From an uncultured Roseobacter sp. (GTDB lineage Bacteria > Pseudomonadota > Alphaproteobacteria > Rhodobacterales > Rhodobacteraceae), in assembly GCF_947491795.1 (NCBI RefSeq), contig NZ_CANLKW010000007.1:1915-65914 (forward strand): a stretch of DNA of 64,000 bases, written 5' to 3'. The notes beneath the pieces were generated by a model that had not been told where the DNA came from, did no database searches, and worked only from the letters and a program-made list of their open reading frames with translations. The stretch's first letter is position 1, and each line of letters starts with the position of its first letter. Shown in pieces: positions 21,484 through 56,387 of this stretch. The position numbers were made by a program, and so were the translations under genes.

Positions 21484-21484
21484 A

Positions 21485-22138: not shown

Positions 22139-22154
22139 GCGTCACACCCCTGAA

Positions 22155-26662: not shown

Positions 26663-26915
26663 GGATGGAGCGGTTCCGCGTGGGCGGCGTTTCCTGCAGC
26701 GCCGTCATCATCACGTCGATGAAGCGCGGATCCCAGTCGGCAGCTTTCCAAAGCACCGGGTAGAGCAGGACGGCTAAGCCCAGCACGGCGATGTGCTGGA
26801 CCCAGACGAACAAGAGCACCGAGCAAAAGAGCCAGACCATCGCATACATGATGGGCAGGCCCAGAAGCTTCGGCGGCCGCACGAGGCCGAGAAAGAGGGG
26901 CGAGCGCTCAGCCAC
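26637..26915 (-). CDS. virB3: T4SS protein VirB3
   Basis: PLFLGLVRPPKLLGLP followed by a TM segment (MVWLFCSVLLFVWV). The probable GTG start at 26915 overlaps the virB2 stop. The track ORF starts at 26972. Confidence 0.7.
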   Translation of the reverse strand: MAERSPLFLGLVRPPKLLGLPIMYAMVWLFCSVLLFVWVQHIAVLGLAVLLYPVLWKAADWDPRFIDVMMTALQETPPTRNRSIHGGDSYAP

Positions 26916-27201
26916 CGGCAAAGACCGCGGCAACAATAGTGGGTGCGGCAGCAACACCGGCGATGCCGACAAGCACCCAGAGGGCCTGGCGCAGATCGAT
27001 GATGTTGAAGAACCAGCTCAAGAAAACACCGAGCACGGCGAGCGTGGCGATGACGACGCCAAGCGGGCCGGTCAGCGCATCGACGATACCCTGAAGCAGG
27101 CTCTGGATCGGGGAGAGATCAATGCTTTGTGCGAGGGCCGGCTCTGCGACGAGGAGGAAGAGCGCGAGCGAGGCGACGAAAAGGTGTGAAATCTGTCTCA
27201 T
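26908..27201 (-). CDS. virB2: T4SS pilin VirB2/TrbC
   Basis: 97 aa with a long signal peptide (..VAEPALAQ) and two hydrophobic helices, in the position before virB3. Confidence 0.8.
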
Positions 27202-27938
27202 GAATTTGATCCTTCCAATCGGGCCATGACGGCCATGACTCGGGCCACGTGGTTCTGGGTTTCTCGGTAGGGGGGAATGCCGCCGTATTGGCGGACTGCA
27301 TCGGGTCCGGCGTTGTAGGCTGCGAGGGCAAGACGCGGTTCGCCGAACGTCTCCAGCATTAACGCAAGGTAGCGGGCGGAGCCGTCGAGGTTCTGAAGTG
27401 GATCACGCGCGTCGACACCGAGATCGCGCACCGTCGCAGGCATCAATTGACCGAGGCCGATGGCGCCAGCGCTCGAGACCGCATCCTGACGGTAGCCGCT
27501 CTCGACTTCGATATTTGCGCGGTAGAGGCTCAGCCAGTCTCGGACAGAAAGATCTGCGCGGCGCAGTGCAGGATGACCGGCATAGCGCAGAGCCGTGGCC
27601 TCTATGGCCGCCAGAACATCGACGCGAGGGAGGGGTGCTGGACGGGCGAGTGCTGCAAAATGCAACGCGTCAGGTTCAATAGCTGGTTCAGCTTCACCGA
27701 GGATCGCCAATTCATCAGCAGCGGACCCCTGTCCGATACCGTCATTGTAGTTCCGGGCAAAGTTGTCCTGGGAGCGGGACGGGGTGAGAGAGCCATCGCT
27801 CTCCATGACCAACACCATTTGCGCAGCGGCGGGACCCGCCAGGAACCAGCAAAGGAGAAGGCTACTTGCTGCCGCCCTTGTCGGTTGCAGCCAGCTTGTG
27901 CGTTGTCCGCTGGCCCTCCTCGAGCGGGACATCGGCAT
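27198..27938 (-). CDS. virB1: Lytic transglycosylase VirB1
   Basis: Signal peptide [16 protein letters not shown], then [27 protein letters not shown] and [11 protein letters not shown]. The start is uncertain; the Arg/Ser-rich N-terminal extension of the track ORF (to 28190) is probably not translated. Confidence 0.8.
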
Positions 27939-28212
27939 GGGAGAAACCAATCCCGATGAGGAAGGAGACCACGCCCGTGATTGTCTTGAACTCGCGGATC
28001 TTGATGTCGTTATAGGTCGTGCGGGTGCGGGCTGTGACGAGGAGTTTTTCCACGCCGTCGTCCGAGACGACACGCATGATCCAGACCCCGTAGTAACTTG
28101 GGCCCTTCTTGTGTGCCGACGCCTGGCACAGGATTTCAGCGCTATAGCCACTTTCCACGAGTTCGCGGAAACGTGCTTCCGTAACCACATTAGGTGCTTC
28201 GATGTCCCAGTT
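27862..28212 (-). CDS. Hypothetical protein upstream of virB1
   Basis: ORF in frame from ATG 28212 ([24 protein letters not shown]...). No motif recognised, and the start is uncertain. Confidence 0.4.
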
Positions 28213-37919: not shown

Positions 37920-39212
37920 ATGATCCGCGCCCTGCTTTTGCTCTCTGTGCTTGTCAGCACAGTGACCGGATTTGCCCCTGCCGCACATGCCTGCCCCCAG
38001 TCGCGCCCAGATGGCGATATCGTCGTTGCCCTGCGCGACAATGCAGAGCCCTTTGCCTATTTCGATGCGGGCGGCGCACCGGCTGGGTTTGCCTATGATC
38101 TGTGGCGGCGGGTCGAGCGGTCGCTTTATGTGCTGGATGATGTGGGCCGGGCCGTCGCGCCCGAGGTGACCTTTGTCGCCTGTAATACCATTGACGGGCA
38201 GGAGATCGCGCTGGTGTCGGGGCGAATCGACGTGGTGATCGCCCCGCTGACGATCACTTCGCAGCGGATGGAATCCTATGATTTCTCGCAGCAGTATCTG
38301 TCGTCGGGCCTGGCGCTGGCGCTGCCGCCATCGAATGCCATCGACTTTTCCCAGGCCAAGGACATTGTGGCAGAGACCATTCTGCACCCCACGGTCGCCC
38401 AGGCGGTACTGCTGTTTCTGACGTTCAACCTGGTGATGGCCTTTCTGATCCGCTGGCTGCTTTTTGGCGGTGACAGCGCAACAGAGAGCCGGACCTCCAC
38501 TTGGCTGCGTTCGCTGCTGGAATCGATCATCCGCACCATCGGGCTGCGCGGGGTCGGGGACGGATATTCAACTGCTGTGGCCAAGGTGCTGGAAATCTTC
38601 CTGGCCGTGGTGGGCACGGCGCTGTCGGCGACGCTGCTGGGTGTTCTGACCTCGGCCTTTGTCGGGTCGGTCGGGGCAGAGCAGAAAGTGCCCGCCGCCG
38701 GTCTGACGCAGATGTCGATTGCCACGCTGGACTGTTCCACCGCCCAGGCGCTGCTGCTGACTGAATACGGCAAGCGCAAGGGGGATGTGGAGGCCGGAAC
38801 GGCCGAGGCCGCGGCGCTGGATCTGCGGGTCAGTCAGCTGGTCTGTAACCCCGAGGACCCCGAGCGCGAGGATATCACCGTCGATGACAGCCCGGACCTG
38901 GCGGGATCGGTGCGTCTGGTGAGCAGCTGGCGGCAGGCGGCCAATCTGCTGGTTGAAGGCAAGGTTGATGGTGTGCTGGGCGACTGGATCGCGCTGACCT
39001 ATCTGAGCCGTCAGGACACCTGGGCAGGTCAGATGGCCGTGCTGCCCACGGTGTACCGCAATGAGCCCTATGGCTGGGGTATTTCCAATACGTCTGTGTC
39101 CGAGGATCTGCGCCGCCAGATTGACCGGGCGCTGATCCGCCAGATGCGCAACCGGGACTGGCGCAAGCGGCTGGAGGACGTGCTGGGGACCGGCAGTGTC
39201 AGCCCGAATTGA
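37920..39212 (+). CDS. Family-3 solute-binding domain split by transmembrane helices (GluR0-like ligand-gated channel architecture)
   Basis: Signal peptide, then SBP lobe 1 (IVVALRDNAEPFAYFD..GFAYDLW..DVVIAPLTITSQRMESYDFSQQYL). Hydrophobic helices follow (AVLLFLTFNLVMAFLIRWLLF; VLEIFLAVVGTALSATLLGVLTSAFVG), separated by IIRTIGLRGVGDGYS. SBP lobe 2 is last (VDGVLGDWIALTYL..YGWGIS). Confidence 0.65.
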   Translation: MIRALLLLSVLVSTVTGFAPAAHACPQSRPDGDIVVALRDNAEPFAYFDAGGAPAGFAYDLWRRVERSLYVLDDVGRAVAPEVTFVACNTIDGQEIALVSGRIDVVIAPLTITSQRMESYDFSQQYLSSGLALALPPSNAIDFSQAKDIVAETILHPTVAQAVLLFLTFNLVMAFLIRWLLFGGDSATESRTSTWLRSLLESIIRTIGLRGVGDGYSTAVAKVLEIFLAVVGTALSATLLGVLTSAFVGSVGAEQKVPAAGLTQMSIATLDCSTAQALLLTEYGKRKGDVEAGTAEAAALDLRVSQLVCNPEDPEREDITVDDSPDLAGSVRLVSSWRQAANLLVEGKVDGVLGDWIALTYLSRQDTWAGQMAVLPTVYRNEPYGWGISNTSVSEDLRRQIDRALIRQMRNRDWRKRLEDVLGTGSVSPN

Positions 39213-40015
39213 CCGTCCAGGAAACAGAAAGGCCCCGGACGGATACACCGCCTGTGACGCCGGGCGATGCCACGACGCGGGCCTCTTATCAGCTGTATTT
39301 CACCTCTGGTTTTTATGACCGGCGCTATCCGGCGCCGAACCGGACGATGTGGGGCCGGATTGCCGGGTTCCTGGGGCCCGGGGCATCGGTGCTGGATTTC
39401 GGCTGTGGCAGCGGGCGCTATCTGCTGCGCCTGCAGGGCAGGGTGGGTCGTGCCGCCGGTTTCGACGTGAGCCCCGCCGCCCTGGAGACGGTCCGCGCGC
39501 GGGCGGCTGAGCTGGGCTGGGAGGATCTGGCGGTGCTGGGCCCCGAGGCGGCAGACCTGGACAGGTATATCCGGGAACAGGGGCCGGTTGATCTGGTGCT
39601 CTGTCTCTTTGGGGTGCTGGGCCATATCACCGACACCGACGCGCGGGCGGATGCGCTGGAGCGGATGCGCCGTGCGCTCAGGCCCGGATCGGGGCGGATG
39701 CTGATTTCGGTGCCGAACCGCGCGCGCCGGTTCCGCCGGGAGCAGGCCACCAGCGCCCGCGACGGTCTGGTGCGCTATAAACGCCGCACAGAGGACGGCC
39801 AGGAGGTGGTGCTGAACTATCAGTTGTTTGATCCGCTGATGCTGACGCGCGAGCTGGTCGCCGCCGGGTTCAGCCTGGAGAACATCTGCTGCGAGAGCGT
39901 GCTGCCGGAAAGCTGGCTGCTGCACCACGCGGCGGCGCGCTGGATCGACGGGCTGCTGACGCCGCTTTGTCCGGCGCGCTGGGGTTACGGCATCTGCGCG
40001 GAGGTCTCATGCTGA
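39209..40015 (+). CDS. Class I SAM-dependent methyltransferase
   Basis: Motif I VLDFGCGSGRYLL, post-I GFDVS, motif II-like DLVLCLFGVLGHI. The TTG start overlaps the upstream stop. Confidence 0.75.
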   Translation: MTVQETERPRTDTPPVTPGDATTRASYQLYFTSGFYDRRYPAPNRTMWGRIAGFLGPGASVLDFGCGSGRYLLRLQGRVGRAAGFDVSPAALETVRARAAELGWEDLAVLGPEAADLDRYIREQGPVDLVLCLFGVLGHITDTDARADALERMRRALRPGSGRMLISVPNRARRFRREQATSARDGLVRYKRRTEDGQEVVLNYQLFDPLMLTRELVAAGFSLENICCESVLPESWLLHHAAARWIDGLLTPLCPARWGYGICAEVSC

Positions 40016-41685
40016 GAGCGCTGGCGCTGATACTGGCCCTGACGGGTGCGCTGCTGCCGCAGGCGGGGCAGGCGCAGAATGTGCCGCCCGAACTGGTCGC
40101 GGAAATGCCACAGGAGGTGTCGAGCCGGCTGGCGCATATCCTGCAGCGCGGCACGCTGATTGTCGGGGTCAAGGATGACTATCCGCCCTGGGGCATGCGC
40201 AACGAGGCCGGCGCGCTGATCGGGCTGGAGCCGGATCTGGCGCGTGAACTGGCCGACCGGATGGGCGTGGAACTGGAGCTGCAGGCGGTGAATTCGGCCA
40301 ACCGGATGGCACGGGTCAATCAGGGGGTTGTCGATGTGGTGATTGCCACCACCGGCGACACCGCAGAGCGCCGCCGCCAGGTCGGCATGCTGCAGCCGAA
40401 TTACTATTCCAGCGGTGTCGTGGTGCTGACCCGCGAGGGCTATGATTTCAATTCCTGGGAAGAGCTGCGGGGCCGCAAGCTCTGTCTGAAGCGCGGGGCC
40501 TATTACAACCGCACGCTCGAGGAAGACTATGGGATCGACGGGGAGTATTTCAGCTCGAACCGGGATTCGCGGCTGGCGCTGCAACAGGGGCGCTGTGTCG
40601 GCTGGGCCTTTGATGACACGGCACTGGTGCAGCTGATCAACAGCCAGAACGATGCCGCGGCAGGCGCGGGGCAGGGCGCCAGCGGCACGTTCCGCATCAT
40701 GGACGAGACGATCCTGGTATCTCCCTGGGCCATTCTGGTCGCAAAGGGCGAGGAAGACGCGCCTCTGGGCCGGTTCGTGTCGGACATGATCGGCGAGTGG
40801 CACGCGGCGGGGCGCATTCTGGATCTGCAGGACAAATGGGGCATCCCGCGCAGTGACTTTGTCGTGGCCAAACACGCGTTGTGGCGCGCGGTTCAGTTTG
40901 GCCGGGCGGTCTGTGCCCGCGATCCGGAGACCGGGGATCATCTGTATAAATGTCTCAACGAGGCCCCGCTGCAGAGCGCGCCTGATCCTGATCCGCCTGG
41001 CTGGATTGTCACCCTGTACGAGGTGACGGGGATCGACCTGCGCGCCGCCGCCAGCCCCTATAACTTGGAGCGTCTGCAGCGCGGGCTGATGCTGACCCTG
41101 GCGCTGAGCCTGTTTGCCATTATCGGCGCGCTGCTGGTGGGGGTCACCCTGTCGATGATGCATATCGTGCTGGCGGGTTTCGGGCTGATCGGGCGCATAT
41201 TGCTGCTGCCCCAGAAACTGCTGGTCACGGTGGCGCGGATGACGCCGCCCATTCTGCAGCTTTATATCGTGTTCTTTGGCCTGGGCGGCATTCTGGGCAA
41301 TTCGGGCGGGTTTTTGCCCGGCTCTTTCGCCATCGCGGTGGTGATCCTGTCGCTTTATGCCGGGGCCACCAATTCGATCATCCTGAGCCATGCGCTGGAG
41401 GCCGAGCGCGCGATCCATCCGGACAAAAGCGCGCTGGCGCTACTGCCGGGGGCGGTGTCGCGGGGGTTTGACGGGCTTGTGGCGGCCTGTGTGAACATCG
41501 TCAAGGGGGCGGGCATGGCCAGCGCCATCGCGGTGGGCGAGCTTATCTCTACCATCAACCTGCTGGTGTCTGAGGGGGCGGATACGACCACGCTGATGAA
41601 CGGGCTGCTGCTGTTCTACTTTCTGTTCATTCTGGGCCTCGTCTGGCTGTTCAAAGCGCTGCGGCGCAGGATGGTGCGGTCATGA
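40009..41685 (+). CDS. Amino-acid ABC transporter, fused periplasmic binding domain plus permease
   Basis: Signal peptide MLRALALILALTGALLPQAGQA. Family-3 SBP (LIVGVKDDYPPWGMRN..GLEPDLARELA..VDVVIATTGDT). C-terminal polytopic permease (..LPGAVSRGFDGLVAACVNIVKGAGMASAIAVGEL). ATG 40009 overlaps the methyltransferase stop. Confidence 0.75.
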   Translation: MLRALALILALTGALLPQAGQAQNVPPELVAEMPQEVSSRLAHILQRGTLIVGVKDDYPPWGMRNEAGALIGLEPDLARELADRMGVELELQAVNSANRMARVNQGVVDVVIATTGDTAERRRQVGMLQPNYYSSGVVVLTREGYDFNSWEELRGRKLCLKRGAYYNRTLEEDYGIDGEYFSSNRDSRLALQQGRCVGWAFDDTALVQLINSQNDAAAGAGQGASGTFRIMDETILVSPWAILVAKGEEDAPLGRFVSDMIGEWHAAGRILDLQDKWGIPRSDFVVAKHALWRAVQFGRAVCARDPETGDHLYKCLNEAPLQSAPDPDPPGWIVTLYEVTGIDLRAAASPYNLERLQRGLMLTLALSLFAIIGALLVGVTLSMMHIVLAGFGLIGRILLLPQKLLVTVARMTPPILQLYIVFFGLGGILGNSGGFLPGSFAIAVVILSLYAGATNSIILSHALEAERAIHPDKSALALLPGAVSRGFDGLVAACVNIVKGAGMASAIAVGELISTINLLVSEGADTTTLMNGLLLFYFLFILGLVWLFKALRRRMVRS

Positions 41686-42362
41686 TCCAGGCGCTTGCTG
41701 AAAAGATCCCGCTGCTGGCGTATCTTTATGATCTGCTGATTGCGCCCTGGAGCCCGGCGCTGGCCTTTACCGGGCATCTGGCGGGCGGTTTCACGATCAA
41801 TCTGCTGATCTCGGTGGTGTCGATGACGCTGGGCACGGTGATCGGGGTGATCCTGGGGCGGATGCGGTTTGCGGGCGTCAGGGTGCTGGATGGCCCGTCC
41901 CGCCTGGCCACGAACATCTGCCGCAATGTGCCCAGCTTTGTGCTGCTGTTCTATATGGCATCGATGATCCCCAGCGAGGTGAATATCGCCGGTCAGATCA
42001 TGGCGGTGCCGCTGTGGATCAAGGCGGCGCTGGCGCTGCTCTTTCCGGTGATCGGCTTTTGTTCGGACCAGTCCTGTGGCTATTTCGAGCAGCGCAAAAC
42101 CGACCCTGCCGGCGCGCGCGAGACCTTTGTGATCGCCTGGACGCAGTATTTTCTGATCATCATCATGGCCTCTGCCACCGCCTCTGTCATCGGGGCGGAC
42201 GAGATCGTGGGCCGGGCCAATTCGATCATTTCGCAGACCAATGACGACCAGCTGATGCTGAGCATCTATTTTTATGTCTCGCTGTGGTTTCTGGCCAGCG
42301 GTCTGCTGGTCACGGGGCTGATTAAAACAATTCTGAAACTTGGCCCAAAGGTAGAAAATTAG
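41682..42362 (+). CDS. Amino-acid ABC transporter permease
   Basis: Polytopic with a His/Glu/Gln/Arg/opine-type pattern (NICRNVPSFVLLFYM..; IIIMASATASVIGADEIVG). 4-nt overlap with the upstream gene. Confidence 0.7.
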   Translation: MIQALAEKIPLLAYLYDLLIAPWSPALAFTGHLAGGFTINLLISVVSMTLGTVIGVILGRMRFAGVRVLDGPSRLATNICRNVPSFVLLFYMASMIPSEVNIAGQIMAVPLWIKAALALLFPVIGFCSDQSCGYFEQRKTDPAGARETFVIAWTQYFLIIIMASATASVIGADEIVGRANSIISQTNDDQLMLSIYFYVSLWFLASGLLVTGLIKTILKLGPKVEN

Positions 42363-42532: not shown

Positions 42533-43108
42533 GTGATTGATCAGGCCCTGACCCTCGTGAGTGACCGGCTGAACGCGCATCTTTCTGCGCTGTTCTCGGT
42601 CTCGGAGGATCTGGTGGCCGTGGGCCCGCTGTCTGACGCAGAGGGCAAACCCACAGCAGAGGCGCGCAACCGGCTGACGCTGTTTCTGACCAATATCGCG
42701 CAGGATTCTGTACCGCGCGGAGGGCGTCCGCGCGGATCGCTGCAGATAGGGCAGGCGCCGCCTGTGCATCTGGATGTCTATTTCATGCTGGCTTCGGGCC
42801 ACGACCCGGAGATCTATGGCGAGGGGCTCAAACTGATCTCGGCGGCGCTGATGTTTTTTCAGGCCAACCCGGTGATGACGCCGCAGCTGGTGCCGGAAAT
42901 GCCGGACGGGATTTCGCAGCTGACGGTGGAAATCTCGAACCTGAAGGTCGAGGAAGTGGGCCAGCTCTGGGGCAATCTGGGGGGGCGCTATGTGCCTTCG
43001 GTCATGTTCAAGATGCGCTCGGTCATGATTGATGCCGGTGCGATCCGCTCGATTGTGCCGCTCATCCGTGCGCCGGGTGGCGAAACCAGACCCCGGGAGA
43101 CAAGCTGA
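42533..43108 (+). CDS. eCIS DUF4255 protein (Afp16/Pvc16-like tail terminator/cap)
   Basis: 191 aa with a GTG start. The pattern LxxxLxxxL..V..G......LxLxLxxI.E, the ending ..LWG.LGG.Y.PSV.YKVR-like (QLWGNLGGRYVPSVMFKMRSV) and the size are typical of DUF4255. It is the first gene of the operon. Confidence 0.75.
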   Translation: MIDQALTLVSDRLNAHLSALFSVSEDLVAVGPLSDAEGKPTAEARNRLTLFLTNIAQDSVPRGGRPRGSLQIGQAPPVHLDVYFMLASGHDPEIYGEGLKLISAALMFFQANPVMTPQLVPEMPDGISQLTVEISNLKVEEVGQLWGNLGGRYVPSVMFKMRSVMIDAGAIRSIVPLIRAPGGETRPRETS

Positions 43109-43857: not shown

Positions 43858-46200
43858 ATGGTCATGAAAACCCCCGGCGTCTACATTGTCGAGAAAAGCG
43901 CCTTTCCCAACTCTGTCGTGCAGGTAGCCACGGCAGTTCCGGCCTTTATCGGCTATACTGAAAAAGCAGTGAACGGGAATGTTTCCCTGCACGAGACCCC
44001 GATGAAAATCACATCGGTGTCCGAGTATCACGGCTATTTCGGGGGCGCGCCCGAGCCCTCGTTCAAGCTGCGCCCGTTCGAGGAGCGCACCGGCCAGCCT
44101 TATGGTGAGGATGCGGATATGGCCGCCGCCGCCGAACTGCCTCAGGCGGTGTTCACGGCCAATGGCCCTGCCGGGCCGGAAAAGTTCGAACTGGTTCAGA
44201 CCAACACGGCCTATACGCTGTATTCGGCGATGCGGGCGTTCTTCCTTAATGGTGGCGGCAACTGCTATGTGACCTCGATCGGGTCCTATGCCGATCCGAT
44301 TGATGCGGATGCGATGCTCAAGGCAATCAAGCGTCTGGAGAAAGAGCCCGAGCCCACGATGCTGGTGATCCCCGAGACCACCCGCCTGAACCGCCAGAAC
44401 GGTGCCAAGGTCCAGCAGCAGATGCTGGCGCACTGCGGCTACACCATGAAAAACCGCTTTGCCATTCTGGACGTGCATGGCGGCTATCTGGACGAACGCA
44501 GCCCACGTGGCGATCCGATTGCACGGTTCCGCATGGATGTCGGTGCCAACTATCTGGATTACGGCGCGGCCTATTATCCCTGGCTGGACAGCGCGGTGTA
44601 CCAGTCGCGTGACTTTACCTTCGAGAACATCGAGCTGGAAAGCCGCAACAAGTTCATCTCGCTGCTGAAACGCTCGGTGAATATGGACAAGGCGCTGGTG
44701 CCCGAGATCCTCAAGGTTGGCACAGCCGAGGTGACGGGTGACTTTACGATCTCTGTCACCAAAGGCGGGATTTCGGTGCTCAAGTCGACGGATATCCATG
44801 CCGCTGACGATCTGGCCGAGGCCGCAGAGCTTCAGTATATGATCGAGGGCGACGCCACGGCCCTGCAGGCCCAGATGAAGGGCAAGCTGGTCACCGGGGC
44901 CAAAAACGCAGGGGCCGAGGCGCTGGCCGCAGCCGATCCGGTCTTTTCCTTTACGCAAAAGGACATCGACGACGGCAAGATCCGCTTTGTGCACAACGGC
45001 AGCGAGGGATCGGGCGGATTCTTTGAACTGGTGATCACCGACAACGAGGGCGTGAAAACATCCGCGCGCAAGATTGTCGTGTCTGTCGGGTCGGACGTCA
45101 TTGCCCTGCCTGATGTGGTCAAGGAAAAGCCGGTCAAAATCTCTGTCGCCGAAGAGGGCGTTGAGATCGAGGACGTTGTCCTGCTGGGCGCGGATCCGGT
45201 CGACGAAGTTGCCGAGAAAAACGGCTCTGACGCTGTTAAGACGGCGCGCCAGGCCCTGGCAGATGCCGCCGATGGTACTGATCTGGCGCCGCTGCAACAG
45301 GCCGTGGCCGATGCAGAGGCCGCAGCGGTTGCCGCTGTGCTGGACAAAACGGTGACCCGCAAGGGCGTCGGCGTCTGGAAGGTAGAGGGCACGGATGTCA
45401 TCCTGGCCCCCAACAAGGAGTTCCGCGGCGCGGAAACCGCCGTGCGCTACAAGCTGGTTGTCGGTGGTGAGTTGTCTGAAGCCAAAGAGATCAAGGTCCT
45501 TGTGGACGGCATCACAGACGACAACCCGCCGCCTGATCCGATGACGGCGACAATCGACAAGACCATGCGGGCAACCGTGCCGCTCTATACGGATGTGATG
45601 AATGCCATCGCCGCCTATATGAACGTCATGCCCCCTGCCGCTGCCATGGCCGGTGTCTATACCGCGGTGGACAACACGCGCGGTGTCTGGAAAGCCCCCG
45701 CGAATGTCTCTGTGGCCGGTGTTACCGGACCGATGGTCAATATCGATCACGGCCAGCAGGAAAACCTCAACGTTTCCACAACGGGCAAATCGATCAACGC
45801 GATCCGGCCGTTTGTGGGCGAGGGGACCCTTGTCTGGGGCGCGCGTACACTCGACGGCAACAGCCTCGACTGGCGCTATATCAACGTGCGCCGCACGATG
45901 ATCATGATCGAGGAATCGATCCGGCTTGCCGCCAAAGCCTATGTGTTTGAGCCCAACACGGCACAGACCTGGGTGACCATCCGGTCGATGATCGAAAACT
46001 TCCTGACTTCGGTCTGGAAAGCGGGCGGTCTGGCCGGTGCGGTGCCTACGGATGCCTTCAGCGTCCATGTGGGTCTGGGCGAGACGATGACGCCGGTGGA
46101 TATCCTGGAAGGCAAACTGCTGATCACCGTTCTGGTGGCGGTCGTGCGTCCTGCGGAATTCATCGAGATCACGTTCCAGCAGCAAATGCAGAAATCATAA
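43858..46200 (+). CDS. Contractile sheath protein (Afp2-4/Pvc2-4-like), 780 aa, with large internal insertion
   Basis: KTPGVYIVEKSAFPNSVVQVATAVPAFIGYTEKA, FAILDV, AAYYPWL, PPAAAMAGVYTAVDNTRGVWKAPANVSV, INAIRPFVGEGTLVWGARTL. Strong SD AAGGAGG lies 7 nt upstream. Confidence 0.92.
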   Translation: MVMKTPGVYIVEKSAFPNSVVQVATAVPAFIGYTEKAVNGNVSLHETPMKITSVSEYHGYFGGAPEPSFKLRPFEERTGQPYGEDADMAAAAELPQAVFTANGPAGPEKFELVQTNTAYTLYSAMRAFFLNGGGNCYVTSIGSYADPIDADAMLKAIKRLEKEPEPTMLVIPETTRLNRQNGAKVQQQMLAHCGYTMKNRFAILDVHGGYLDERSPRGDPIARFRMDVGANYLDYGAAYYPWLDSAVYQSRDFTFENIELESRNKFISLLKRSVNMDKALVPEILKVGTAEVTGDFTISVTKGGISVLKSTDIHAADDLAEAAELQYMIEGDATALQAQMKGKLVTGAKNAGAEALAAADPVFSFTQKDIDDGKIRFVHNGSEGSGGFFELVITDNEGVKTSARKIVVSVGSDVIALPDVVKEKPVKISVAEEGVEIEDVVLLGADPVDEVAEKNGSDAVKTARQALADAADGTDLAPLQQAVADAEAAAVAAVLDKTVTRKGVGVWKVEGTDVILAPNKEFRGAETAVRYKLVVGGELSEAKEIKVLVDGITDDNPPPDPMTATIDKTMRATVPLYTDVMNAIAAYMNVMPPAAAMAGVYTAVDNTRGVWKAPANVSVAGVTGPMVNIDHGQQENLNVSTTGKSINAIRPFVGEGTLVWGARTLDGNSLDWRYINVRRTMIMIEESIRLAAKAYVFEPNTAQTWVTIRSMIENFLTSVWKAGGLAGAVPTDAFSVHVGLGETMTPVDILEGKLLITVLVAVVRPAEFIEITFQQQMQKS

Positions 46201-46688: not shown

Positions 46689-47144
46689 ATGGATCTGCTC
46701 AGCCCTCCTGTTGCGTTTCATTTTACGGTCATGTTCGTGGGAATGGTCCCGCCCGTGCCCGACATGGCGTTTCAGGAGGTTTCGGGCCTTGAAAGCGGTC
46801 TGGACACCGAGCCCGTGGTCGAGGGGGGAGAAAACCGTTTCGTGCATCAGCTGCCGAAGCCTGCCAAGCGCGGGAATCTGAAGCTGAAGCGCGGGATGTC
46901 CACCCAGGCCAGCGGTCTTGTGCAGTGGTGCAAATCGACCATCGAGGGCGATTTTGCCGAGGCCATCGTGCCCAAGGACATCACGGTGTCGTTGCTGAAT
47001 CAAATGCGTATTCCGGTGGCCGTCTGGACCGTCGGGAACGCCTATCCGGTCAAATGGACGGTGGGGGGATTTGACGCGATGAAAAACGAACTGGCGGTCG
47101 AGACGATCGAACTGGCCTATACCACGCTGGTCAGGTCGGTCTGA
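46689..47144 (+). CDS. Second tail tube protein (Afp5/Pvc5-like)
   Basis: PPVAFHFTVMF...AFQEVSGLESGLDTEPVVEGGENRFVHQLPKPAKRGNLKLKRGM. Confidence 0.85.
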   Translation: MDLLSPPVAFHFTVMFVGMVPPVPDMAFQEVSGLESGLDTEPVVEGGENRFVHQLPKPAKRGNLKLKRGMSTQASGLVQWCKSTIEGDFAEAIVPKDITVSLLNQMRIPVAVWTVGNAYPVKWTVGGFDAMKNELAVETIELAYTTLVRSV

Positions 47145-47317
47145 TGGCTGTGGAAATCGGAACGCTGGTGCTCAGGGGCCGGTTCGGGCCTGCGCGCGAG
47201 GATACGGGCGCACAGGTGCCCGATATGACGGAGGCTTTTGAAGAGCTGCGCCGCGATCTGCTGCGCGCGATGGACGAGCGCATGGACGAGGCCGCGCGCC
47301 GGAGCCGGGAGCGCTGA
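47144..47317 (+). CDS. Small eCIS protein (57 aa; Afp6/DUF5908-like), below the ORF-track cutoff
   Basis: Hand translation: MAVEIGTLVLRGRFGPAREDTGAQVPDMTEAFEELRRDLLRAMDERMDEAARRSRER*. The ATG overlaps the tube gene stop. The N-terminal M-x-(I/V)-E-I-x-x-L-x-(I/L)-R pattern recalls DUF5908 (from memory). Confidence 0.5.
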   Translation: MAVEIGTLVLRGRFGPAREDTGAQVPDMTEAFEELRRDLLRAMDERMDEAARRSRER

Positions 47318-47320
47318 TCC

Positions 47321-50108: not shown

Positions 50109-50546
50109 ATGGAAGAAAACGATCCAGGGTTCCTTGGCCGCGGCTGGCATTTCCCGCCCGTGTTCGACCCCGCAACAGGAGAAGTTCAGATGGTCCAGTC
50201 CGAAGAGGACGTGGCCGAGAGCCTGCGCATTCTGATGAACACGCGGCCCGGCGAACGGATCATGCAGCCCGCCTATGGCTGCCGCATCCATGACTATGTG
50301 TTCGAGCCGAACGACGCCGAAACCCAGGCCGGGATCGAAACCGCGATCCGCCAGGCCATTTTGTTTTTTGAGCCGCGCGTCACTCTGCACCGGGTTGAAG
50401 TGATCATGACAGACTGGCTGGAAGGCCGGATCGGCGTGATGCTGGATTACACCGTGGACCAGTCAAACTCGCGCTCGAACATGGTCTACCCGTTCTACAT
50501 CCGCGAGGGCACGCTTGTGTCCGATACCCCGTTACCGGCGATCTGA
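50109..50546 (+). CDS. Baseplate wedge protein, GPW/gp25 family (Afp9-like)
   Basis: FLGRGWHFPPVFD...EEDVAESLRILMNTRPGERIMQPAYGCRIHDYVFEP. Confidence 0.9.
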   Translation: MEENDPGFLGRGWHFPPVFDPATGEVQMVQSEEDVAESLRILMNTRPGERIMQPAYGCRIHDYVFEPNDAETQAGIETAIRQAILFFEPRVTLHRVEVIMTDWLEGRIGVMLDYTVDQSNSRSNMVYPFYIREGTLVSDTPLPAI

Positions 50547-50552
50547 GGGCAC

Positions 50553-51527
50553 ATGGCAATAGTTACCATAACTACTGTTATCAAAAAGACCAGCGCGGGC
50601 GCTGCCGTGCTCGCCCTGGCGGGGTGCGGCGTGTTTCCCGAAGACTTTCCCGTCGTGCCCGATGTGCTCAAGGAACAGGACACCGGGCGGTTCACCGGGC
50701 TGCCCCCCGCCCAGTCCTGCGACCGCAACGAAGTTAAGGACAAGAACATGACCGGCGCGCTGCTGCGTCAGTCCGAAGCGGCGGGTTTCGCCTTTGATAT
50801 TGTCTATGTGACCGGGCGCAGCTCGCGGCTGGGGCTCGCGCCCGAGATTTCCTTTGCCGACCGGTCCGATGCGGACCTGCCCGAAGAGATCGAAGGCGCG
50901 GTGTTTCGCGGATCGCGCAAATCCACCGCCACGCAGCGCAGCGGTTTTGGCCCCGATGACACCCTGCCCAACGTCTATGACATCACCTATTCGGTCTGGG
51001 AAAAGAACTTTTCCGGGCCGGTCGTGCTGGGCCCTGGTGCTGTGGGCGCAGAGATCCCCACCACAGGCGCGTCCACATTCTCTGGCAGGATTGCGCTGCA
51101 GCTGATCACCGCAGACAAAGACGGCAACCCGGTGGAAACCAGCGCCACGGGCAGCTTCAGCCTGCGCGCGGGCTATGGATCGGGGCGGGCATCTTTTGCC
51201 GCCAGCGGCTTTGACGCCGATCTGCCCTTTGACAGTCTGACCTGGGAAAACCTCTTTCTGTGTGGCACGCGCTTTGTCAGCAGCGGCAAGGGCGTTGTTT
51301 CTGTGCGCACAGGCGACGGCCCCGCCCTGCCACCCTTTAAAACCGGGCGCGAACCTGTGCCCTTTACGGCTGTTTTCGAATCCTCGCAGTTTGCGCCCGA
51401 AGAGCGCCCCGGCCCGCCGGTTGCCGCCGGTGGTGTCTTTGCCATTGAAAGCGATGCGGGCACGCTGACGGCTGTGTTCCTCTCGGATCTGCCGCCCGCG
51501 GTCGAAGACGAAGAGGAGGCCGGATGA
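50553..51527 (+). CDS. Predicted lipoprotein with TbpB/fHbp-like beta-barrel pattern, embedded in the baseplate module
   Basis: MAIVTITTVIKKTSAGAAVLALAGCG has an n-region KK, a hydrophobic core and the lipobox LAGC. The C-terminal half (EIPTTGASTFSGRIAL...ATGSFSLRAGYGSGRASFAAS...LFLCGTRFVSSG...AAGGVFAIESDAGTLTAVF) follows the pattern of surface-lipoprotein barrels of the transferrin-binding-protein-like family. Gaps of 6 nt and 1 nt to its neighbours. Confidence 0.7.
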   Translation: MAIVTITTVIKKTSAGAAVLALAGCGVFPEDFPVVPDVLKEQDTGRFTGLPPAQSCDRNEVKDKNMTGALLRQSEAAGFAFDIVYVTGRSSRLGLAPEISFADRSDADLPEEIEGAVFRGSRKSTATQRSGFGPDDTLPNVYDITYSVWEKNFSGPVVLGPGAVGAEIPTTGASTFSGRIALQLITADKDGNPVETSATGSFSLRAGYGSGRASFAASGFDADLPFDSLTWENLFLCGTRFVSSGKGVVSVRTGDGPALPPFKTGREPVPFTAVFESSQFAPEERPGPPVAAGGVFAIESDAGTLTAVFLSDLPPAVEDEEEAG

Positions 51528-51528
51528 C

Positions 51529-54500
51529 ATGAGCCACCGCTGGCAGGACATCCGCGTGACCCCGGGATCGCTGGCCACCCAGCGGCTGCCGCGTGCCCTG
51601 TCGCCGCGCCGGTTCCGGATCAGGCACGACAGTCTGGCGGCGGCTTTTGCGGCTGCGGGCGCGCGTCTGGGGGCTGCGGATGTTGCTGTAGCGCGCACCG
51701 CCCGCCGGGCACCGCCCTGGGCGCGGCTTTTTCAGAATGAACCGGCCTATCTTTATGCCGAACTGCTGGCCTTCCGCGCAGATGATGCCGGTTTCGCCTT
51801 TGCCGAGGCGCTGGAGCAGGATCCGGGCCAGGCGCTGGTGCTGATCGGGCAACTGGCCACGCGGCTGGATGGCTGGCTGCAGCGGATCAGGATGGAACGC
51901 CCCGTCGTGTTCTCGCGCCAGCTCGAACAGCTCGACCGCGAGGCGGATCTGACAACTCTGGTACGGTCGCTGACCGGCGCGCAGCCCTCGGTGGTGCTGC
52001 GCCGTGCGGGCGAGCATCACACTGTGCGCGAGGCGGAACGCACCAAAGGCGCGCTCGTTGCCGCACGGGCCACCCGCGAACGTCTGCGCGCCATCCACAC
52101 GGTGCTGCGCAACACGGTAACCGCGCTGCAACCGGTGGCGCAAAAGGCCTTTGACGCCCGCATTCATTCGGGTCAGATGGACCCCGGGCTGGGTCTGCTG
52201 GTGGCGGAACTGCGCACAGCGGCCCATGTGGATGCGGCGATCAACGCGCTGCCGGAGCGCCATACAGAGCTCTACTACCGTGACATCATCGGCCAGACAC
52301 CCGCCGGGGCCAGCCCGGAGATGGTGCTGCTGGGTCTGGGTGCCGTGCCCAAACGCGGGCATCTGCCCCAGGGTGCCGGGCTGGAGGCGCTGTTGCCGGA
52401 CGGCACGGTACAGCATTTCACCACAGAGGCAGCCGTCCCCGTCAGCACCGCGCGGATCAGCGATATCCGCACGCTCAGCTACGAGACCAACCCCGACATC
52501 TCTTATAACCGCGCGCTTGGCGGCATCACCGGCCTGCGCGCCGCCCATATCGGGCCACAGCCCGCCGCCGGCGCTGCGACGCTCTTTGACAGCGGGGCGG
52601 AGGTGCCGCTGAACACCGGGCTCGATATCTGCTCTCCGATGCTGTCGCTGGCCGAAGGCACCCGCCGTATCGAGGTCACGCTGCACATGAACCGCAGCTC
52701 CAGCCTGCCCGCCGGGTCGGACTGCGTCGCCTGCGATGATTTCCGCGCCCGCAGTGCACAGCGCGCAGAGGGCACGGCGCGCGATGTGCCGGACCTGCGC
52801 CGCCCGCTCGGCGCGGACCCCGAAAAATATGCGCCGGATGTGCGGCTGGCCCTGGCCGCAGATGCGGATCTGGTGCGCCTTTTCGAGCCGGGCAAGATTG
52901 AAACGGGCATCGACACGCTGACCCGTGACGTCACGGATTACGCGAAAGCCCATGCGCAGACGCCTTCTGTCTCGCTCATCTACCGCGTACTGATGGGCCG
53001 GGTCGAGCGCCCCGACCAGCTGCGCCTGTTGCTGGGGCGGATCGTGAAACTGTCGCTGATCGAACAGCACCCTTTCCCGGCCAACGACTACTGGGACCAG
53101 ATCTATGCGCTGGTCGACCGCTTCCGCCCGGAGCTGACCGGTGCCCGCAAAGGGGCGGACCCGGATCACGGGCAAAGCTCGATGATCTTTTCGGCGTTTT
53201 CGCAAAAACCTGATGGCACCATCGATTATCCGCCCGAGGACGTGTTCCAGAGCCTGCTGGGCGATGCCTTTGACATCACGATCACGACCGATGACGGTCC
53301 GCGCCGCCCCGACATCATGCAGGTGCTGCCCATCCGCCGCAAACAAAGCGCGGGCGGACTGACCCTGAGCCTGCGGTTTGACGAGAGCGCCCCCGCCCTG
53401 ACCGGGCCGGACCATGCCCCGCGCCTGGCCCTGCGCTATGCCACAGATTCGCGGCTCTGCCCGATCTCCTTTTTCGAAGACTACGCGCTGGAAACCATCA
53501 CCATCCGCACCCAGGTCACCGGGCTGCGGCGGCTGGCGGCCTTTTCAGACGCGGGGCCGGTGGTGACAGACCAGACCTTTATGCCCTTTGGACCCCAGCC
53601 AACCGACGGGGCGACCTTTCAGGTCGGCTGCGCCGAGATGGCCCGCAAACCGGTCACAGAAATCGGGATCAGCCTGGGCTGGACCGGAATGCCCAACCCG
53701 GTGGGCGGCTTTGAAAGCCATTATGAGGCCTACGGCAAAGACGTCGATATTCCGGCGCCGGAGCTGACCGTGGAATACCTCAGCGGGGACGGCTGGAAAC
53801 CGGTCAGCAACGGGCCGGTGCCGCTCTTTCAGAACGAGGAGGTCACCGGCGCGCTGCTGCCGGACTGGCAGTTTACCGGCAGGGTCACGGGACACTCTAT
53901 CCCTGCAACCGGCGTTGTGACCGCCAGCGAATACCAGTCCCGCCAGACGATCCGCGCGGGCATGATCCGCATGCATCTTACCGGGACGGCTGGCGGCTTT
54001 CTGGCCAGCCAGTACCCGATGGCACTGGTCGATGCGATGCGACCCCGCCTTATTCCTCTGGGCGCGCGCAAGGTCCCGCCTGCGCCCTATGTTCCCAAAG
54101 TCAGCCGCTTTTCGCTGTCCTATACCGCCGAATCCACGATTGAGCTGAACGCGCCCGATGCTGCGCGCGCCGGCGAGACCGTGTATCAGGCCGGTCCGTT
54201 CGGGTCGGTCTGCGTCTTTCCCAAACGTATGCTGCGGCGCATCCGGCTGTTCCCCGAGCGTATGGGCTATGGCCATGTCGCTTTTCAGCTGACGGGCCGG
54301 GACGCCGCAGGCCCTGTGGCCGTTGCCTTTGACATGGCCCAGTCCGGGCACCTGCGCCTGGTGCCTGCGCCCAACCCACTGCGCTGGGTCTACCTGTCGG
54401 CCACAGGCTGGACCGATCTGCCGGAAACGGCGCTGTCCTCGGACACCACCGCCGGGCTGATGCGCTCTGGTCTCATTGTGATCGACCTGCCCGACGACGC

Positions 54501-55527
54501 GACAGATCATTCGCCGGAAATGCCCCCGGGCGGTGTCTGGATTGCCGCCGTGGCCACCCGGCCCCATCTGCAGATTTTCCCCGCGCTCAGCGCTGTTGCG
54601 GTCAACGGGGTCTGGGCGCGGCGGCAGGACGACACCTGGAAAGACTTTGGCACGCCGCGCACATGGTCCTTTGCCCCTGCCCGCCCCAGCCTGAATGCAC
54701 CGTCAGAAATTGCCACCCCGGCAGAAATACGCCCGCCCGAACCCCCGGGCGCCTTTATCGCGCGGGTGGGCGAACGGCTGCGCCACCGGCGCCGCGCAGT
54801 ACGGCCCTGGGACATGGAGCGCATGGTGCTCGAGGCCTTCCCCGAGGTCTGGATGGCCAAATGCCTGCCCCACCTCAGCCGCCACACGCCCGCACCGACG
54901 CCGGGCACGATCACCATGGTGGTCACGCGCAAACCGCCAACCGATGCAGCCCTGGACAACCCGGCACCAGCGCTCTTTGACGTGGCCACGCTGGAACGGA
55001 TCAGCGCCTGGCTGCGCGACTATGTCACCGAAGAGGCCGCCGTCGATGTGGTCAACCCGACCTTTGAACGCCTGCAGGTACGGGCCAAACTCTCTGTCAC
55101 GGCAGACCGCGAAAACGGTGCAATGGCCCAGATGCTGCGCCGGGATCTGGCGCGCTATCTGTCGGTCTGGACGGCAGACAGCTCGCTGGCGCGGTTTGGC
55201 TGGTCGCTGAATGTGCATATGCTGCGCGCCCATATCAACGGGCTGCCCTATGTCCGCGACATCACCGATTTCTCTGTGCTCCACCTCGCCGGAGACGACG
55301 GCCGCAGCTATCAACTGCTCGACACCGCACAGGCCGGGAACGACCCGCGCGGCGGTGGCTACGGGCCGGTTCTGACACCCCGGTTCCCCTGGAGCCTGCC
55401 GCTTTCAACACCCGATCACATACTCACAATCCTGCCAGAAATTCACGATGAAACGCCCGCGGCCGCCGGTATCGGCAGCCTGACCGTCGGCGACATGCTC
55501 ATCGTAGGCCAGAGGACAATCCCGTGA
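51529..55527 (+). CDS. Baseplate J/gp6-like protein (Afp11/Pvc11-like), 1332 aa
   Basis: The C-terminal block RRAVRPWDMERMVLEAFPEVWMAKCLPH...ITMVVTRK...VNPTFERLQVRAKL is typical of eCIS Afp11 homologues. Position follows gp25. Confidence 0.75.
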   Translation: MSHRWQDIRVTPGSLATQRLPRALSPRRFRIRHDSLAAAFAAAGARLGAADVAVARTARRAPPWARLFQNEPAYLYAELLAFRADDAGFAFAEALEQDPGQALVLIGQLATRLDGWLQRIRMERPVVFSRQLEQLDREADLTTLVRSLTGAQPSVVLRRAGEHHTVREAERTKGALVAARATRERLRAIHTVLRNTVTALQPVAQKAFDARIHSGQMDPGLGLLVAELRTAAHVDAAINALPERHTELYYRDIIGQTPAGASPEMVLLGLGAVPKRGHLPQGAGLEALLPDGTVQHFTTEAAVPVSTARISDIRTLSYETNPDISYNRALGGITGLRAAHIGPQPAAGAATLFDSGAEVPLNTGLDICSPMLSLAEGTRRIEVTLHMNRSSSLPAGSDCVACDDFRARSAQRAEGTARDVPDLRRPLGADPEKYAPDVRLALAADADLVRLFEPGKIETGIDTLTRDVTDYAKAHAQTPSVSLIYRVLMGRVERPDQLRLLLGRIVKLSLIEQHPFPANDYWDQIYALVDRFRPELTGARKGADPDHGQSSMIFSAFSQKPDGTIDYPPEDVFQSLLGDAFDITITTDDGPRRPDIMQVLPIRRKQSAGGLTLSLRFDESAPALTGPDHAPRLALRYATDSRLCPISFFEDYALETITIRTQVTGLRRLAAFSDAGPVVTDQTFMPFGPQPTDGATFQVGCAEMARKPVTEIGISLGWTGMPNPVGGFESHYEAYGKDVDIPAPELTVEYLSGDGWKPVSNGPVPLFQNEEVTGALLPDWQFTGRVTGHSIPATGVVTASEYQSRQTIRAGMIRMHLTGTAGGFLASQYPMALVDAMRPRLIPLGARKVPPAPYVPKVSRFSLSYTAESTIELNAPDAARAGETVYQAGPFGSVCVFPKRMLRRIRLFPERMGYGHVAFQLTGRDAAGPVAVAFDMAQSGHLRLVPAPNPLRWVYLSATGWTDLPETALSSDTTAGLMRSGLIVIDLPDDATDHSPEMPPGGVWIAAVATRPHLQIFPALSAVAVNGVWARRQDDTWKDFGTPRTWSFAPARPSLNAPSEIATPAEIRPPEPPGAFIARVGERLRHRRRAVRPWDMERMVLEAFPEVWMAKCLPHLSRHTPAPTPGTITMVVTRKPPTDAALDNPAPALFDVATLERISAWLRDYVTEEAAVDVVNPTFERLQVRAKLSVTADRENGAMAQMLRRDLARYLSVWTADSSLARFGWSLNVHMLRAHINGLPYVRDITDFSVLHLAGDDGRSYQLLDTAQAGNDPRGGGYGPVLTPRFPWSLPLSTPDHILTILPEIHDETPAAAGIGSLTVGDMLIVGQRTIP

Positions 55528-56387
55528 CCAAACAAGACCGCGCAACCCTCAAATCCTTCTTTCGCAGCGGGGCCCTGCCCACCGCCACGGAATACCGCGA
55601 TCTGATCGACAGTACCGTCAACCAGGTTGATGACGGCTTTGCCAAGACCGACGCAGACGGGCTGCGGCTCAATTCGGTCGGCTCGTCGCTGCGGGTGCTC
55701 AGCCTGTATCAGGGGCTGGGCACGCCGAAACCCTCCTGGGTGCTGGAACATGGCGATGCGCTTGGCGCGCTGCATTTCCGGCCCGATCTGGGCAAGTCCG
55801 CACTGGAGTTCGACGGCGGCGCGGCCCCGGGCACGGACACATCCGGCGATCCGGCCATCGCCGGGCTCTCGATCACCCGCGACGGACGCGTCGGTGTTGC
55901 GCGCGAGGCCCCGGACTGGCGTCTGGACGTGGCAGGTGTGGCCCGGATGCAGGGCCGCATCGGGGTCGCCAGCCATAAAATCCCCTATGTCAAAGCGGAC
56001 GGCAAATGGCACGACATCACCCAGGCAATGACCGGCTGTCAGTGTTTCGAGATCACCGCAGGCACCGGGGGCGACCCGCGCAAGGGGCGCTATTCGATGA
56101 TGCACGCCATTGCGATGAACGCCTTTCACCCGCGCAACCCAATTCTCAACTGGCTGTTCCGCCGGCGTTCGATCAAAACGCAGACGGCGATGTATGGCTC
56201 CTATGCCGACCGGCTGCGGCTGCGCTGGGTCGCGGATGAACAGCAACACCATTTCCGCCTGCAGCTGCGCACCAACGCCAATTTCGGCGAGGGCAAAGTC
56301 GTGCGCTATTATCTGACCCAGCTGTGGTTTGACAGCCTGATGACCGGCGCGCGCGAAGGTGCTGACCGCGATGCGGGGGCGCTGTGA
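55524..56387 (+). CDS. eCIS-operon protein with tail-fibre-like N-terminus (287 aa)
   Basis: TLKSFFRSGALPTATEYRDLIDS and GRVGVAREAPDWRLDVAGVARMQG resemble N-terminal motifs of short fibre/adhesin-like proteins found in CIS loci (from memory). 4-nt overlaps on both sides. Confidence 0.5.
   Translation: MTKQDRATLKSFFRSGALPTATEYRDLIDSTVNQVDDGFAKTDADGLRLNSVGSSLRVLSLYQGLGTPKPSWVLEHGDALGALHFRPDLGKSALEFDGGAAPGTDTSGDPAIAGLSITRDGRVGVAREAPDWRLDVAGVARMQGRIGVASHKIPYVKADGKWHDITQAMTGCQCFEITAGTGGDPRKGRYSMMHAIAMNAFHPRNPILNWLFRRRSIKTQTAMYGSYADRLRLRWVADEQQHHFRLQLRTNANFGEGKVVRYYLTQLWFDSLMTGAREGADRDAGAL

Follow-up and report, generated by a model that had tools for sequence, protein, structure and literature searches.

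We analysed a 64,000-nucleotide stretch of DNA from an uncultured Roseobacter sp. (Rhodobacteraceae; contig NZ_CANLKW010000007.1, positions 1,915 to 65,914 of the forward strand), hereafter the window, the + strand of which carries a complete contractile injection system (CIS) cluster, from a Pvc16_N cap through an AAA ATPase, according to Pfam and PDB sequence matches. Within the baseplate part of this cluster, between the genes for a gp25-like wedge protein and the cage protein Cis11, lies a gene for a predicted exported lipoprotein, which is the subject of this report. The novelty lies in a line of CIS that has an exported lipoprotein dedicated to it, whereas the protein is a new, divergent addition to a fold family already known. 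Full-text literature searches turned up no lipoprotein described as part of a CIS baseplate operon, nor any study of CIS from the Roseobacter group, and the main text of a large survey of extracellular CIS (eCIS) mentioned neither lipoproteins nor signal peptides. The baseplate genes and the parts of the lipoprotein were located as follows.

50109..50546, + strand: gp25-like baseplate wedge gene (Cis9; PF04965, E 2.7e-26)
50553..51527, + strand: CIS-linked lipoprotein gene, 324 aa (open reading frame, 27 homologues, AlphaFold2 model)
50553..50627, + strand: predicted type II signal peptide with n-region (K11 K12), h-region and lipobox L22-A23-G24-C25 (50616-50627)
50628..51047, + strand: mature N-terminal 'handle/pedestal', residues 26-165; the most variable part, containing Cys56, with beta strands in the model
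51048..51488, + strand: C-terminal TbpB_B_D-type beta-barrel, residues ~166-312; begins with the EIPTTGASTFSG strand and contains Cys237
51489..51527, + strand: acidic C-terminal tail and stop codon; variable in the alignment
51529..55527, + strand: cis11, gp6-like cage protein, 1332 aa (PDB sequence matches; synteny over 20 loci)
55524..56387, + strand: conserved 287-aa gene between cis11 and cis12, kept in all loci
56384..58522, + strand: cis12, gp6/7-like cage protein, 712 aa (PDB sequence matches)

The 1332-aa product was identified as a Cis11/Afp11 homologue by its matches to the PDB chains of SalCis11 (9rce_A, E 2.3e-89), Algo11 (2.8e-45), All3317 of the thylakoid-anchored CIS (tCIS), Pvc11 and Afp11, and the 712-aa product as a Cis12/Afp12 homologue by its matches to SalCis12 (2e-31), Algo12, All3315, Afp12 and Pvc12. 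The lipoprotein open reading frame (ORF) is separated by 6 nt from the end of gp25 (50546) and by 1 nt from the start of cis11 (51529), exactly as stated in an initial annotation made from the sequence alone. Its ribosome-binding site, GAGGG, overlaps the gp25 stop codon, and the Shine-Dalgarno sequence of cis11, GAGGAGG (51513-51519), falls within the last codons of the lipoprotein ORF. Promoter-like and terminator-like matches in the 42–59 kb region were no more numerous than in shuffled sequence, which fits transcription as one unit. A long tail-fibre gene of the Afp13 type was not found at its canonical position between cis12 and the tape-measure gene, and this CIS lineage appears to be fibre-less save for the 287-aa protein.

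Twenty related loci for which the region upstream of cis11 was available were compared, originating from R. denitrificans, Rhodovulum, Octadecabacter, Roseobacter, Litoreibacter and metagenomes; the genome scan for further loci used an 11-sequence alignment, and a metagenome scan added only three loci. Roseobacter litoralis is a further carrier of the cluster. The lipoprotein gene was located 5' of cis11 in 20/20 loci and was directly adjacent to it in 19, with a 179-aa ORF intervening in the remaining one (L004). This pairing survived three architectures, namely the single operon seen in the window, a pair of divergent operons in which the lipoprotein gene is the first gene of the cis11 arm (L002, L003 and L005), and an arrangement in which the gp25 arm is elsewhere and the cis11 arm adjoins unrelated sugar-metabolism genes (L004). 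It was also retained in L007 and L008, whose lipoprotein copies are 25–29% identical. The junction itself varied, from a 1-nt gap in the window to overlaps of 4 nt (L008) and 8 nt (L001). The initial annotation had proposed a survey of whether homologues co-occur with CIS baseplate genes, and they did so at every locus examined; the possibility it had raised of a recent, unrelated insertion missing from related loci is at odds with the presence of the gene in all of them. In the Rhodovulum-type loci (L002, L003 and L005), one operon runs from a DUF4157 gene through a substrate-binding protein (SBP) gene, the cap and the sheath to gp25, and the other from the lipoprotein gene through cis11 to the tape-measure gene.

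The lipoprotein gene was absent from Pararhizobium pPspA13b and Aureibacter pAT3, two sister clusters found with a Cis11 query, where gp25 is followed directly by cis11. It was likewise not found in plasmid records, and a scan of viral contigs with Cis11 returned nothing. The gene is therefore an accessory of one lineage (Roseobacter, Litoreibacter, Octadecabacter, Rhodovulum and relatives), present 5' of cis11 throughout that lineage and absent from the sister clusters and plasmid records. The 287-aa protein, which is 58–89% identical across the lineage, has a 32%-identical homologue after cis11 in Aureibacter pAT3. Because the sister clusters are without the lipoprotein and Aureibacter keeps the 287-aa homologue, gene order indicates that the lipoprotein gene is a lineage-specific insertion and that the 287-aa gene is older.

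Twenty-seven homologues of the lipoprotein (E 2e-45 to 2e-106) were recovered from a set of 5.8 billion proteins, all from Rhodobacterales or metagenomes; every named source was Roseobacter, Litoreibacter or Rhodovulum, and no homologue had a Pfam domain. An exhaustive profile search gave 63 cluster representatives at 50% identity. In an alignment of 22 homologues, the lipobox Cys and 26 further columns were invariant, and the rest of the N-terminus was the least conserved region. These homologues, representatives and invariant columns show that the ORF did not arise by chance.

The N-terminus of the protein reads MAIVTITTVIKKTSAGAAVLALAG followed by CG, which fits a lipobox pattern of the PROSITE type, Cys25 being followed by Gly at +2, in agreement with the L-A-G-C lipobox and lipoprotein signal described in the initial annotation; no start codon further upstream is possible, and all relatives keep both the signal peptide and the lipobox. 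It has the sequence features expected of bacterial lipoproteins ([LVI][ASTG][GA]C, with the Cys ~15–35 residues from the start). A lipobox-type motif ending in Cys was present in 20/20 locus copies, 18 of which followed the strict PROSITE-like pattern, the others reading LGAC and LAAC. Two Cys residues of the mature protein, C56 (50718-50720) and C237 (51261-51263), were invariant in the 22-sequence alignment, and two mature-region Cys occurred at matching positions even in the most divergent CIS-linked copies (L007 and L008); the pair was missing from generic non-CIS relatives. Its conservation suggests a disulfide and hence an oxidising, non-cytoplasmic location. The +2 residue was variable (G, S, L, A or E), with Asp in a single sequence (P0021) of the 22-homologue alignment and absent from all 20 locus copies, which, read by the E. 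coli sorting rules, points to the outer membrane. We know of no validation of these rules for Alphaproteobacteria.

The AlphaFold2 model, built from the family alignment (predicted local distance difference test score (pLDDT) 82; predicted TM-score (pTM) 0.79), is confident and, past the signal helix, all-beta. In a Foldseek search against the PDB, the best 30 matches, all with E <= 0.001, were chains of TbpB (27), NHBA (1) and LbpB (2), and fHbp and the Slam-dependent PmSLP came next (E 0.002–0.006). The best match was the TbpB C-lobe 5kkx_B (E 6e-6, TMt 0.57), and the NHBA barrel 6cuj_A gave a TMt of 0.67, the TM-scores of this class being moderate only. Residues 26–165 aligned with the handle of the TbpB lobes. 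At the sequence level, the window protein had no Pfam match at E <= 1 and does not count as a member of PF01298 (TbpB_B_D) by Pfam; NCBIfam and PHROGs likewise returned no match. The weakest matches of the lipoprotein family profile, however, included lipoproteins with TbpB_B_D matches, among them P0086 and P0087 with scores of 39.9 and 43.8 bits, respectively, against a Pfam gathering cut-off (GA) of 26. When the CIS-linked family was aligned with six such lipoproteins, three of which exceed the Pfam cut-off, two clearly, hhalign gave a probability of 99.4% (E 2.9e-21, 277 columns). P0087, a generic TbpB_B_D relative, sits in an unrelated gene context. Fold and remote homology together place the lipoprotein in the handle-barrel class of the TbpB_B_D type, which bears out the TbpB-like barrel that had been read from motif spacing, and the motifs on which that reading relied (EIPTTGASTFSG, GSFSLRAGYGSGRASFAAS and GGVFAIESDAGTLTAVF) are all present in the translation.

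A sequence-profile search of all PDB chains with the lipoprotein gave only chance-level matches (E >= 0.22) and no solved CIS component, and the viral structure library BFVD contained nothing below E 0.08. A phage origin was rejected, as no viral fold relative (E < 0.08) and no PHROG match was found, which indicates that a cellular lipoprotein was recruited rather than a phage-tail part inherited. Taken together, it is very probable that the gene encodes a Sec-exported protein, predicted to be lipidated at Cys25 and composed of a handle and an eight-stranded barrel, that was recruited from the alphaproteobacterial TbpB_B_D family into one CIS lineage as a fixed accessory gene.

Compared with its closest relative (L010), the lipoprotein is 58% identical, and the corresponding values are 74% for Cis12, 79% for Cis11, 90% for gp25, 91% for VgrG, 93% for the sheath, 96–97% for the tubes and 100% for PAAR. 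Among the nine proteins compared over 13 complete loci, the lipoprotein had the largest mean pairwise distance (0.525); the values were 0.513 for Cis12, 0.492 for VgrG, 0.412 for Cis11, 0.283 for the sheath and 0.133 for the tube. Variation was concentrated in the handle, with a mean conservation of 0.40 for residues 26–135 and 0.64 for the barrel. Excess divergence, defined as the remainder after removing the trend explained by the core proteins, was then correlated between proteins, with p values obtained by permutation. The excess divergence of the lipoprotein was correlated with that of Cis12 (r 0.57, p 2e-4) and Cis11 (r 0.53, p 4e-4) and also with that of gp25, which is itself within the core predictor (r 0.45, p 2e-4); no correlation was observed with the sheath (r -0.08, p 0.70) or the 287-aa protein (r -0.13, p 0.80). 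The excess divergence of the lipoprotein thus tracks the cage proteins Cis11 and Cis12 in a test that is weak and correlative. The 287-aa gene is uncorrelated even though it lies between cis11 and cis12, which counts against a pure linkage effect.

Outer-membrane proteins of the Slam/type XI secretion system (T11SS) occur widely among Roseobacteraceae and have few known cargoes (PMC12282271). A tblastn search with two Rhodobacterales T11SS proteins detected no Slam/DUF560 gene in the window or within 10 kb of the CIS loci L001–L021, and the arrangement typical of Slam/T11SS-dependent lipoproteins, a cognate Slam next to its cargo, was not seen. There were 207 DUF560 homologues in Roseobacteraceae and relatives, and among the 120 matches listed, no named one originated from a known CIS-bearing genome. 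Compared with the T11SS cargo predicted for Slam loci of Ruegeria and Rhodovulum, the lipoprotein showed no real similarity (hhalign 4%). On these three results, at the scope given for each, the lipoprotein is best not classed among the surface lipoproteins that depend on Slam/T11SS.

CIS are usually sorted in two, released particles (eCIS) and envelope-anchored machines (type VI secretion systems, T6SS). T6SS-iv, SalCIS, and the thylakoid-anchored and Streptomyces CIS are in-between forms, and the lipoprotein gene offers a direct experimental way into how such forms meet the envelope. The closest solved relative of both Cis11 and Cis12 of the window is SalCIS of Salmonella enterica subsp. salamae, which is reported to be associated with the inner membrane and not detectably released, a membrane-proximal localisation that was likened to cryo-electron tomography of the Amoebophilus T6SS-iv (PMC13266070). 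The view in the initial annotation that membrane association is known only for the thylakoid-anchored and Streptomyces CIS is accordingly out of date. Like the window cluster, the SalCIS operon encodes a Sec-dependent envelope component, SalCis20, a polytopic membrane protein with a peptidoglycan-hydrolase-like periplasmic domain (PMC13266070); unlike the window protein, SalCis20 is no lipoprotein barrel, and the main text describing SalCIS makes no mention of a lipoprotein (PMC13266070). Afp, PVC, AlgoCIS, Aureibacter pAT3 and Pararhizobium pPspA13b share the same core parts, arranged around spike and wedge in a largely similar order, but in these clusters gp25 leads directly into cis11, whereas the window cluster has an exported protein between them.

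With its fold class of Slam- or T11SS-dependent surface lipoproteins (TbpB, LbpB, fHbp, NHBA and haemophilin), the window protein has in common the type II signal peptide, the order of a beta handle before an eight-stranded barrel, and an N-terminal part that is the more variable one. It differs from this class in being single-lobed, ~300 aa long and below Pfam detection, with a clade-specific Cys pair, and in having no adjacent Slam/DUF560 gene and no TonB-dependent receptor partner, its gene lying inside a CIS baseplate operon. A likeness in role only can be drawn to TssJ, the outer-membrane lipoprotein of T6SS, since both are lipoproteins encoded within a contractile-machine cluster that could tie the machine to the envelope. 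TssJ has a transthyretin-like fold, which is unrelated to the fold predicted here; neither the PDB profile search nor Foldseek returned a sequence or structural match to it, and Pfam scans of the cluster proteins showed no domain of the TssL/TssM type, the partners of TssJ. A possible likeness in role also extends to TraT of F-like plasmids, Llp of phage T5 and Cor, lipoproteins of transfer or injection elements that act on the producer's own surface, although no sequence or fold similarity to them was found (no PHROG and no BFVD match).

The presence of the gene suggests a dedicated envelope partner for a machine that is supposedly built in the cytoplasm. We tentatively favour, at somewhat below even probability, the reading that the lipoprotein acts from the envelope side of the producing cell, as a partner that docks or anchors the Cis11/Cis12 cage there. 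This role is favoured because SalCIS is reported to lie at the inner membrane, was not detectably released and has a Sec-exported membrane protein in its operon (PMC13266070), because inner-membrane proteins with periplasmic SBP domains are kept at the cluster edge or inside the cap/sheath operon, and because the lipoprotein gene is linked to a cage gene and not to the effector-like DUF4157 gene, 16 kb away in the window. In such a scheme, the lipoprotein would sit in the envelope, by default in the outer membrane, facing the periplasm, or the cell surface if Slam/T11SS were used. It would bind the Cis11/Cis12 cage, the variable handle providing the binding face and the barrel serving as a scaffold or sorting domain, and would thereby fix or receive the baseplate at the producer-cell envelope. 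The protein would be an analogue in role, not a homologue, of TssJ, and would complement the membrane association proposed for SalCIS.

Several considerations weigh against the docking role. Its main weakness is that a lipoprotein has no cytoplasmic part and could not contact a cytoplasmic baseplate unless an inner-membrane protein bridged the two or the membrane had been penetrated beforehand. Cis11, the 287-aa protein and Cis12 contain no hydrophobic segments, and the cluster genes scanned included no TssL/TssM-like protein and no peptidoglycan hydrolase of the SalCis20 kind. The hallmarks of eCIS (a Pvc16 cap, a tape measure and an Afp15-like ATPase), together with an Ig-decorated sheath, fit a released particle equally well. 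Fast evolution suits an anchor no better than it suits a role in specificity or exclusion, and part of the rate correlation could stem from a shared recombination history of neighbouring genes. In addition, every characterised protein with this fold binds external ligands at the cell surface and not machine parts. A broader version, in which the lipoprotein is displayed on the outer membrane as the cognate, co-evolving docking site of a fibre-less cage, either as a T6SS-like firing station or as a self-encoded receptor or identity tag, is doubtful. If the firing-station version were true, it would represent a new envelope-spanning station made from parts unrelated to TssJLM. If the receptor or identity-tag version were true, the tag would decide which neighbouring cells a particle engages or spares, giving a CIS with its own kin-recognition determinant.

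The initial annotation had listed several candidate functions and singled out none. Five other explanations were weighed, taken here in decreasing order of likelihood: self-exclusion, a targeting adaptor, a hitchhiking gene, a release factor and a protein that is not exported. The first holds that a surface or outer-membrane lipoprotein stops sibling particles from firing productively at the producer, either by masking the docking site or as a cage-binding decoy. Such a role would account for the lipoprotein being the fastest-evolving protein of the cluster with its variable part in the exposed handle, for its excess divergence tracking the cage, which would be the surface-contacting part of a particle without an Afp13-type fibre gene after cis12, and for a fold class composed of surface-exposed binding proteins (PMC12282271). 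Protection of this kind is nevertheless rather unlikely, as the gene is linked to cis11 and not to the effector-like DUF4157 gene, no orphan copies of the lipoprotein were seen outside CIS clusters, and neither homology to TraT, Llp and Cor nor any phage match was obtained. The lipoprotein was also considered as an immunity factor against the effector-like DUF4157 gene, since the two genes adjoin each other in divergent orientation in Rhodovulum-type loci; this was set aside because they lie 16 kb apart in the window and cis11 is the only constant neighbour.

The missing tail fibres could also be explained if the exported lipoprotein bound the cage after release by lysis and supplied receptor binding in their place. 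The lack of an Afp13-like fibre gene between cis12 and the tape-measure gene, the ligand-binding fold with its variable handle and the covariation of divergence with the cage proteins are all in line with this targeting function. A lipid-anchored protein is held in the membrane, however, and would have to be extracted before it could join a particle; a short fibre may already be present in the form of the conserved 287-aa protein encoded after cis11, and the mode of action is without precedent, which together make an adaptor improbable.

That the gene has no CIS role, encoding an ordinary ligand- or nutrient-binding TbpB-like lipoprotein, possibly T11SS-dependent, that is merely co-transcribed between gp25 and cis11, is consistent with the nearest non-CIS relatives, which are generic lipoproteins in unrelated contexts (for example, L009 beside phosphoglucomutase), and with the wide distribution of Slam/T11SS proteins and their few known cargoes noted above. 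Mere co-transcription is quite improbable, however, given a gene that remains 5' of cis11 in every locus down to 25% identity and across three architectures, a CIS-linked clade with its own invariant Cys pair, a family that was found outside CIS clusters only at a remote, generic level, and the lack of a Slam gene within 10 kb of the loci searched. A release factor that helps break the outer membrane for particle escape, comparable to spanins or colicin lysis lipoproteins, would meet the need of eCIS for lysis, and the scan of cluster genes revealed no holin, endolysin or spanin; known lysis lipoproteins, on the other hand, are very small and of unrelated fold, whereas the present protein is a 300-aa globular protein of binding type that is tied to cis11 and not part of a late lysis cassette, making this function very unlikely. 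Finally, it is extremely unlikely that the protein is a cytoplasmic subunit of the baseplate whose N-terminus goes unused as a signal, for although the gene is placed inside the baseplate block in close spacing to cis11, every homologue retains the lipobox Cys in an N-terminus that otherwise varies greatly, the protein shares its fold and family with exported lipoproteins, and no PDB chain was matched in searches that did recover solved CIS baseplates with Cis11 and Cis12.

A CIS lineage in abundant marine bacteria has fixed a fast-evolving exported lipoprotein of the TbpB fold beside its cage gene, which offers a one-gene handle on an envelope tie or on discrimination between self and target. 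It also gives the TbpB/haemophilin/T11SS-cargo fold a role other than nutrient capture or immune evasion. If the lipoprotein sets docking or targeting specificity, it might find use in re-targeting engineered CIS particles.

The other parts of the CIS cluster are listed below.

42533-43108, + strand: Pvc16_N cap, the first part of the CIS cluster (Pfam)
Between cap and sheath, + strand: gene for a 244-aa protein
43858-46200, + strand: sheath, 780 aa, with a Cadherin_3 insert
3' of the sheath, + strand: two gp19-type tube genes
47144-47320, + strand: 58-aa ORF between the second tube gene and CIS_tube
Between the 58-aa ORF and gp25, + strand: CIS_tube, VgrG and PAAR genes, in this order
58522-62412, + strand: CIS tape-measure protein (CIS_TMP), 3' of cis12; an AAA ATPase gene then ends the cluster

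The Cadherin_3 Ig-like insertion of the 780-aa sheath occupies residues 297–398 and is common to the relatives checked. The tape-measure protein is ~30% identical among the closest relatives, compared with >90% for the sheath and tubes. The 58-aa ORF is kept in most loci and is a candidate Cis6-like plug. The 287-aa protein had no match in Pfam, the PDB or PHROG, and its single-sequence AlphaFold2 model was unusable (pLDDT 32); it may be a short fibre or an anchor.

The following genes were found upstream of the cap.

39967-42362, + strand: SBP_bac_3 domain fused to six membrane segments (572 aa), then a four-segment permease-like protein (226 aa)
39209-40015, + strand: S-adenosylmethionine (SAM)-dependent methyltransferase gene, between the two SBP genes
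37920-39212, + strand: 430-aa protein with a signal peptide, a Lig_chan-Glu_bd match and an SBP_bac_3 domain interrupted by two membrane segments (residues 149-167 and 217-235)
33885-37685, - strand: trio of genes for an 835-aa protein, a 177-aa protein and a 245-aa protein with an eCIS_core/DUF4157 domain
30997-33570, + strand: fusion of a bacteriophytochrome with HWE histidine kinase and receiver domains, shortly upstream of the CIS region
19412-28190, - strand: type IV secretion genes, comprising a TrbI/VirB10-like protein, a type IV secretion system (T4SS)-family protein, a VirB4/TrbE-like protein and two SLT transglycosylases

The genes for the 572-aa and 226-aa proteins are kept just upstream of the cap in 10 Roseobacter/Litoreibacter loci and were not seen in R. 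denitrificans, L019 or L021. The predicted layout of the 430-aa SBP protein is that of GluR0-type ligand-gated channels; its homologue adjoins the CIS in R. denitrificans, where the methyltransferase gene is also beside it, and lies inside the cap/sheath operon of Rhodovulum-type loci. The trio on the - strand is probably an effector module. The type IV secretion genes raise the possibility that the window lies on or near a conjugative element, and the bacteriophytochrome kinase is a possible light-dependent regulator.

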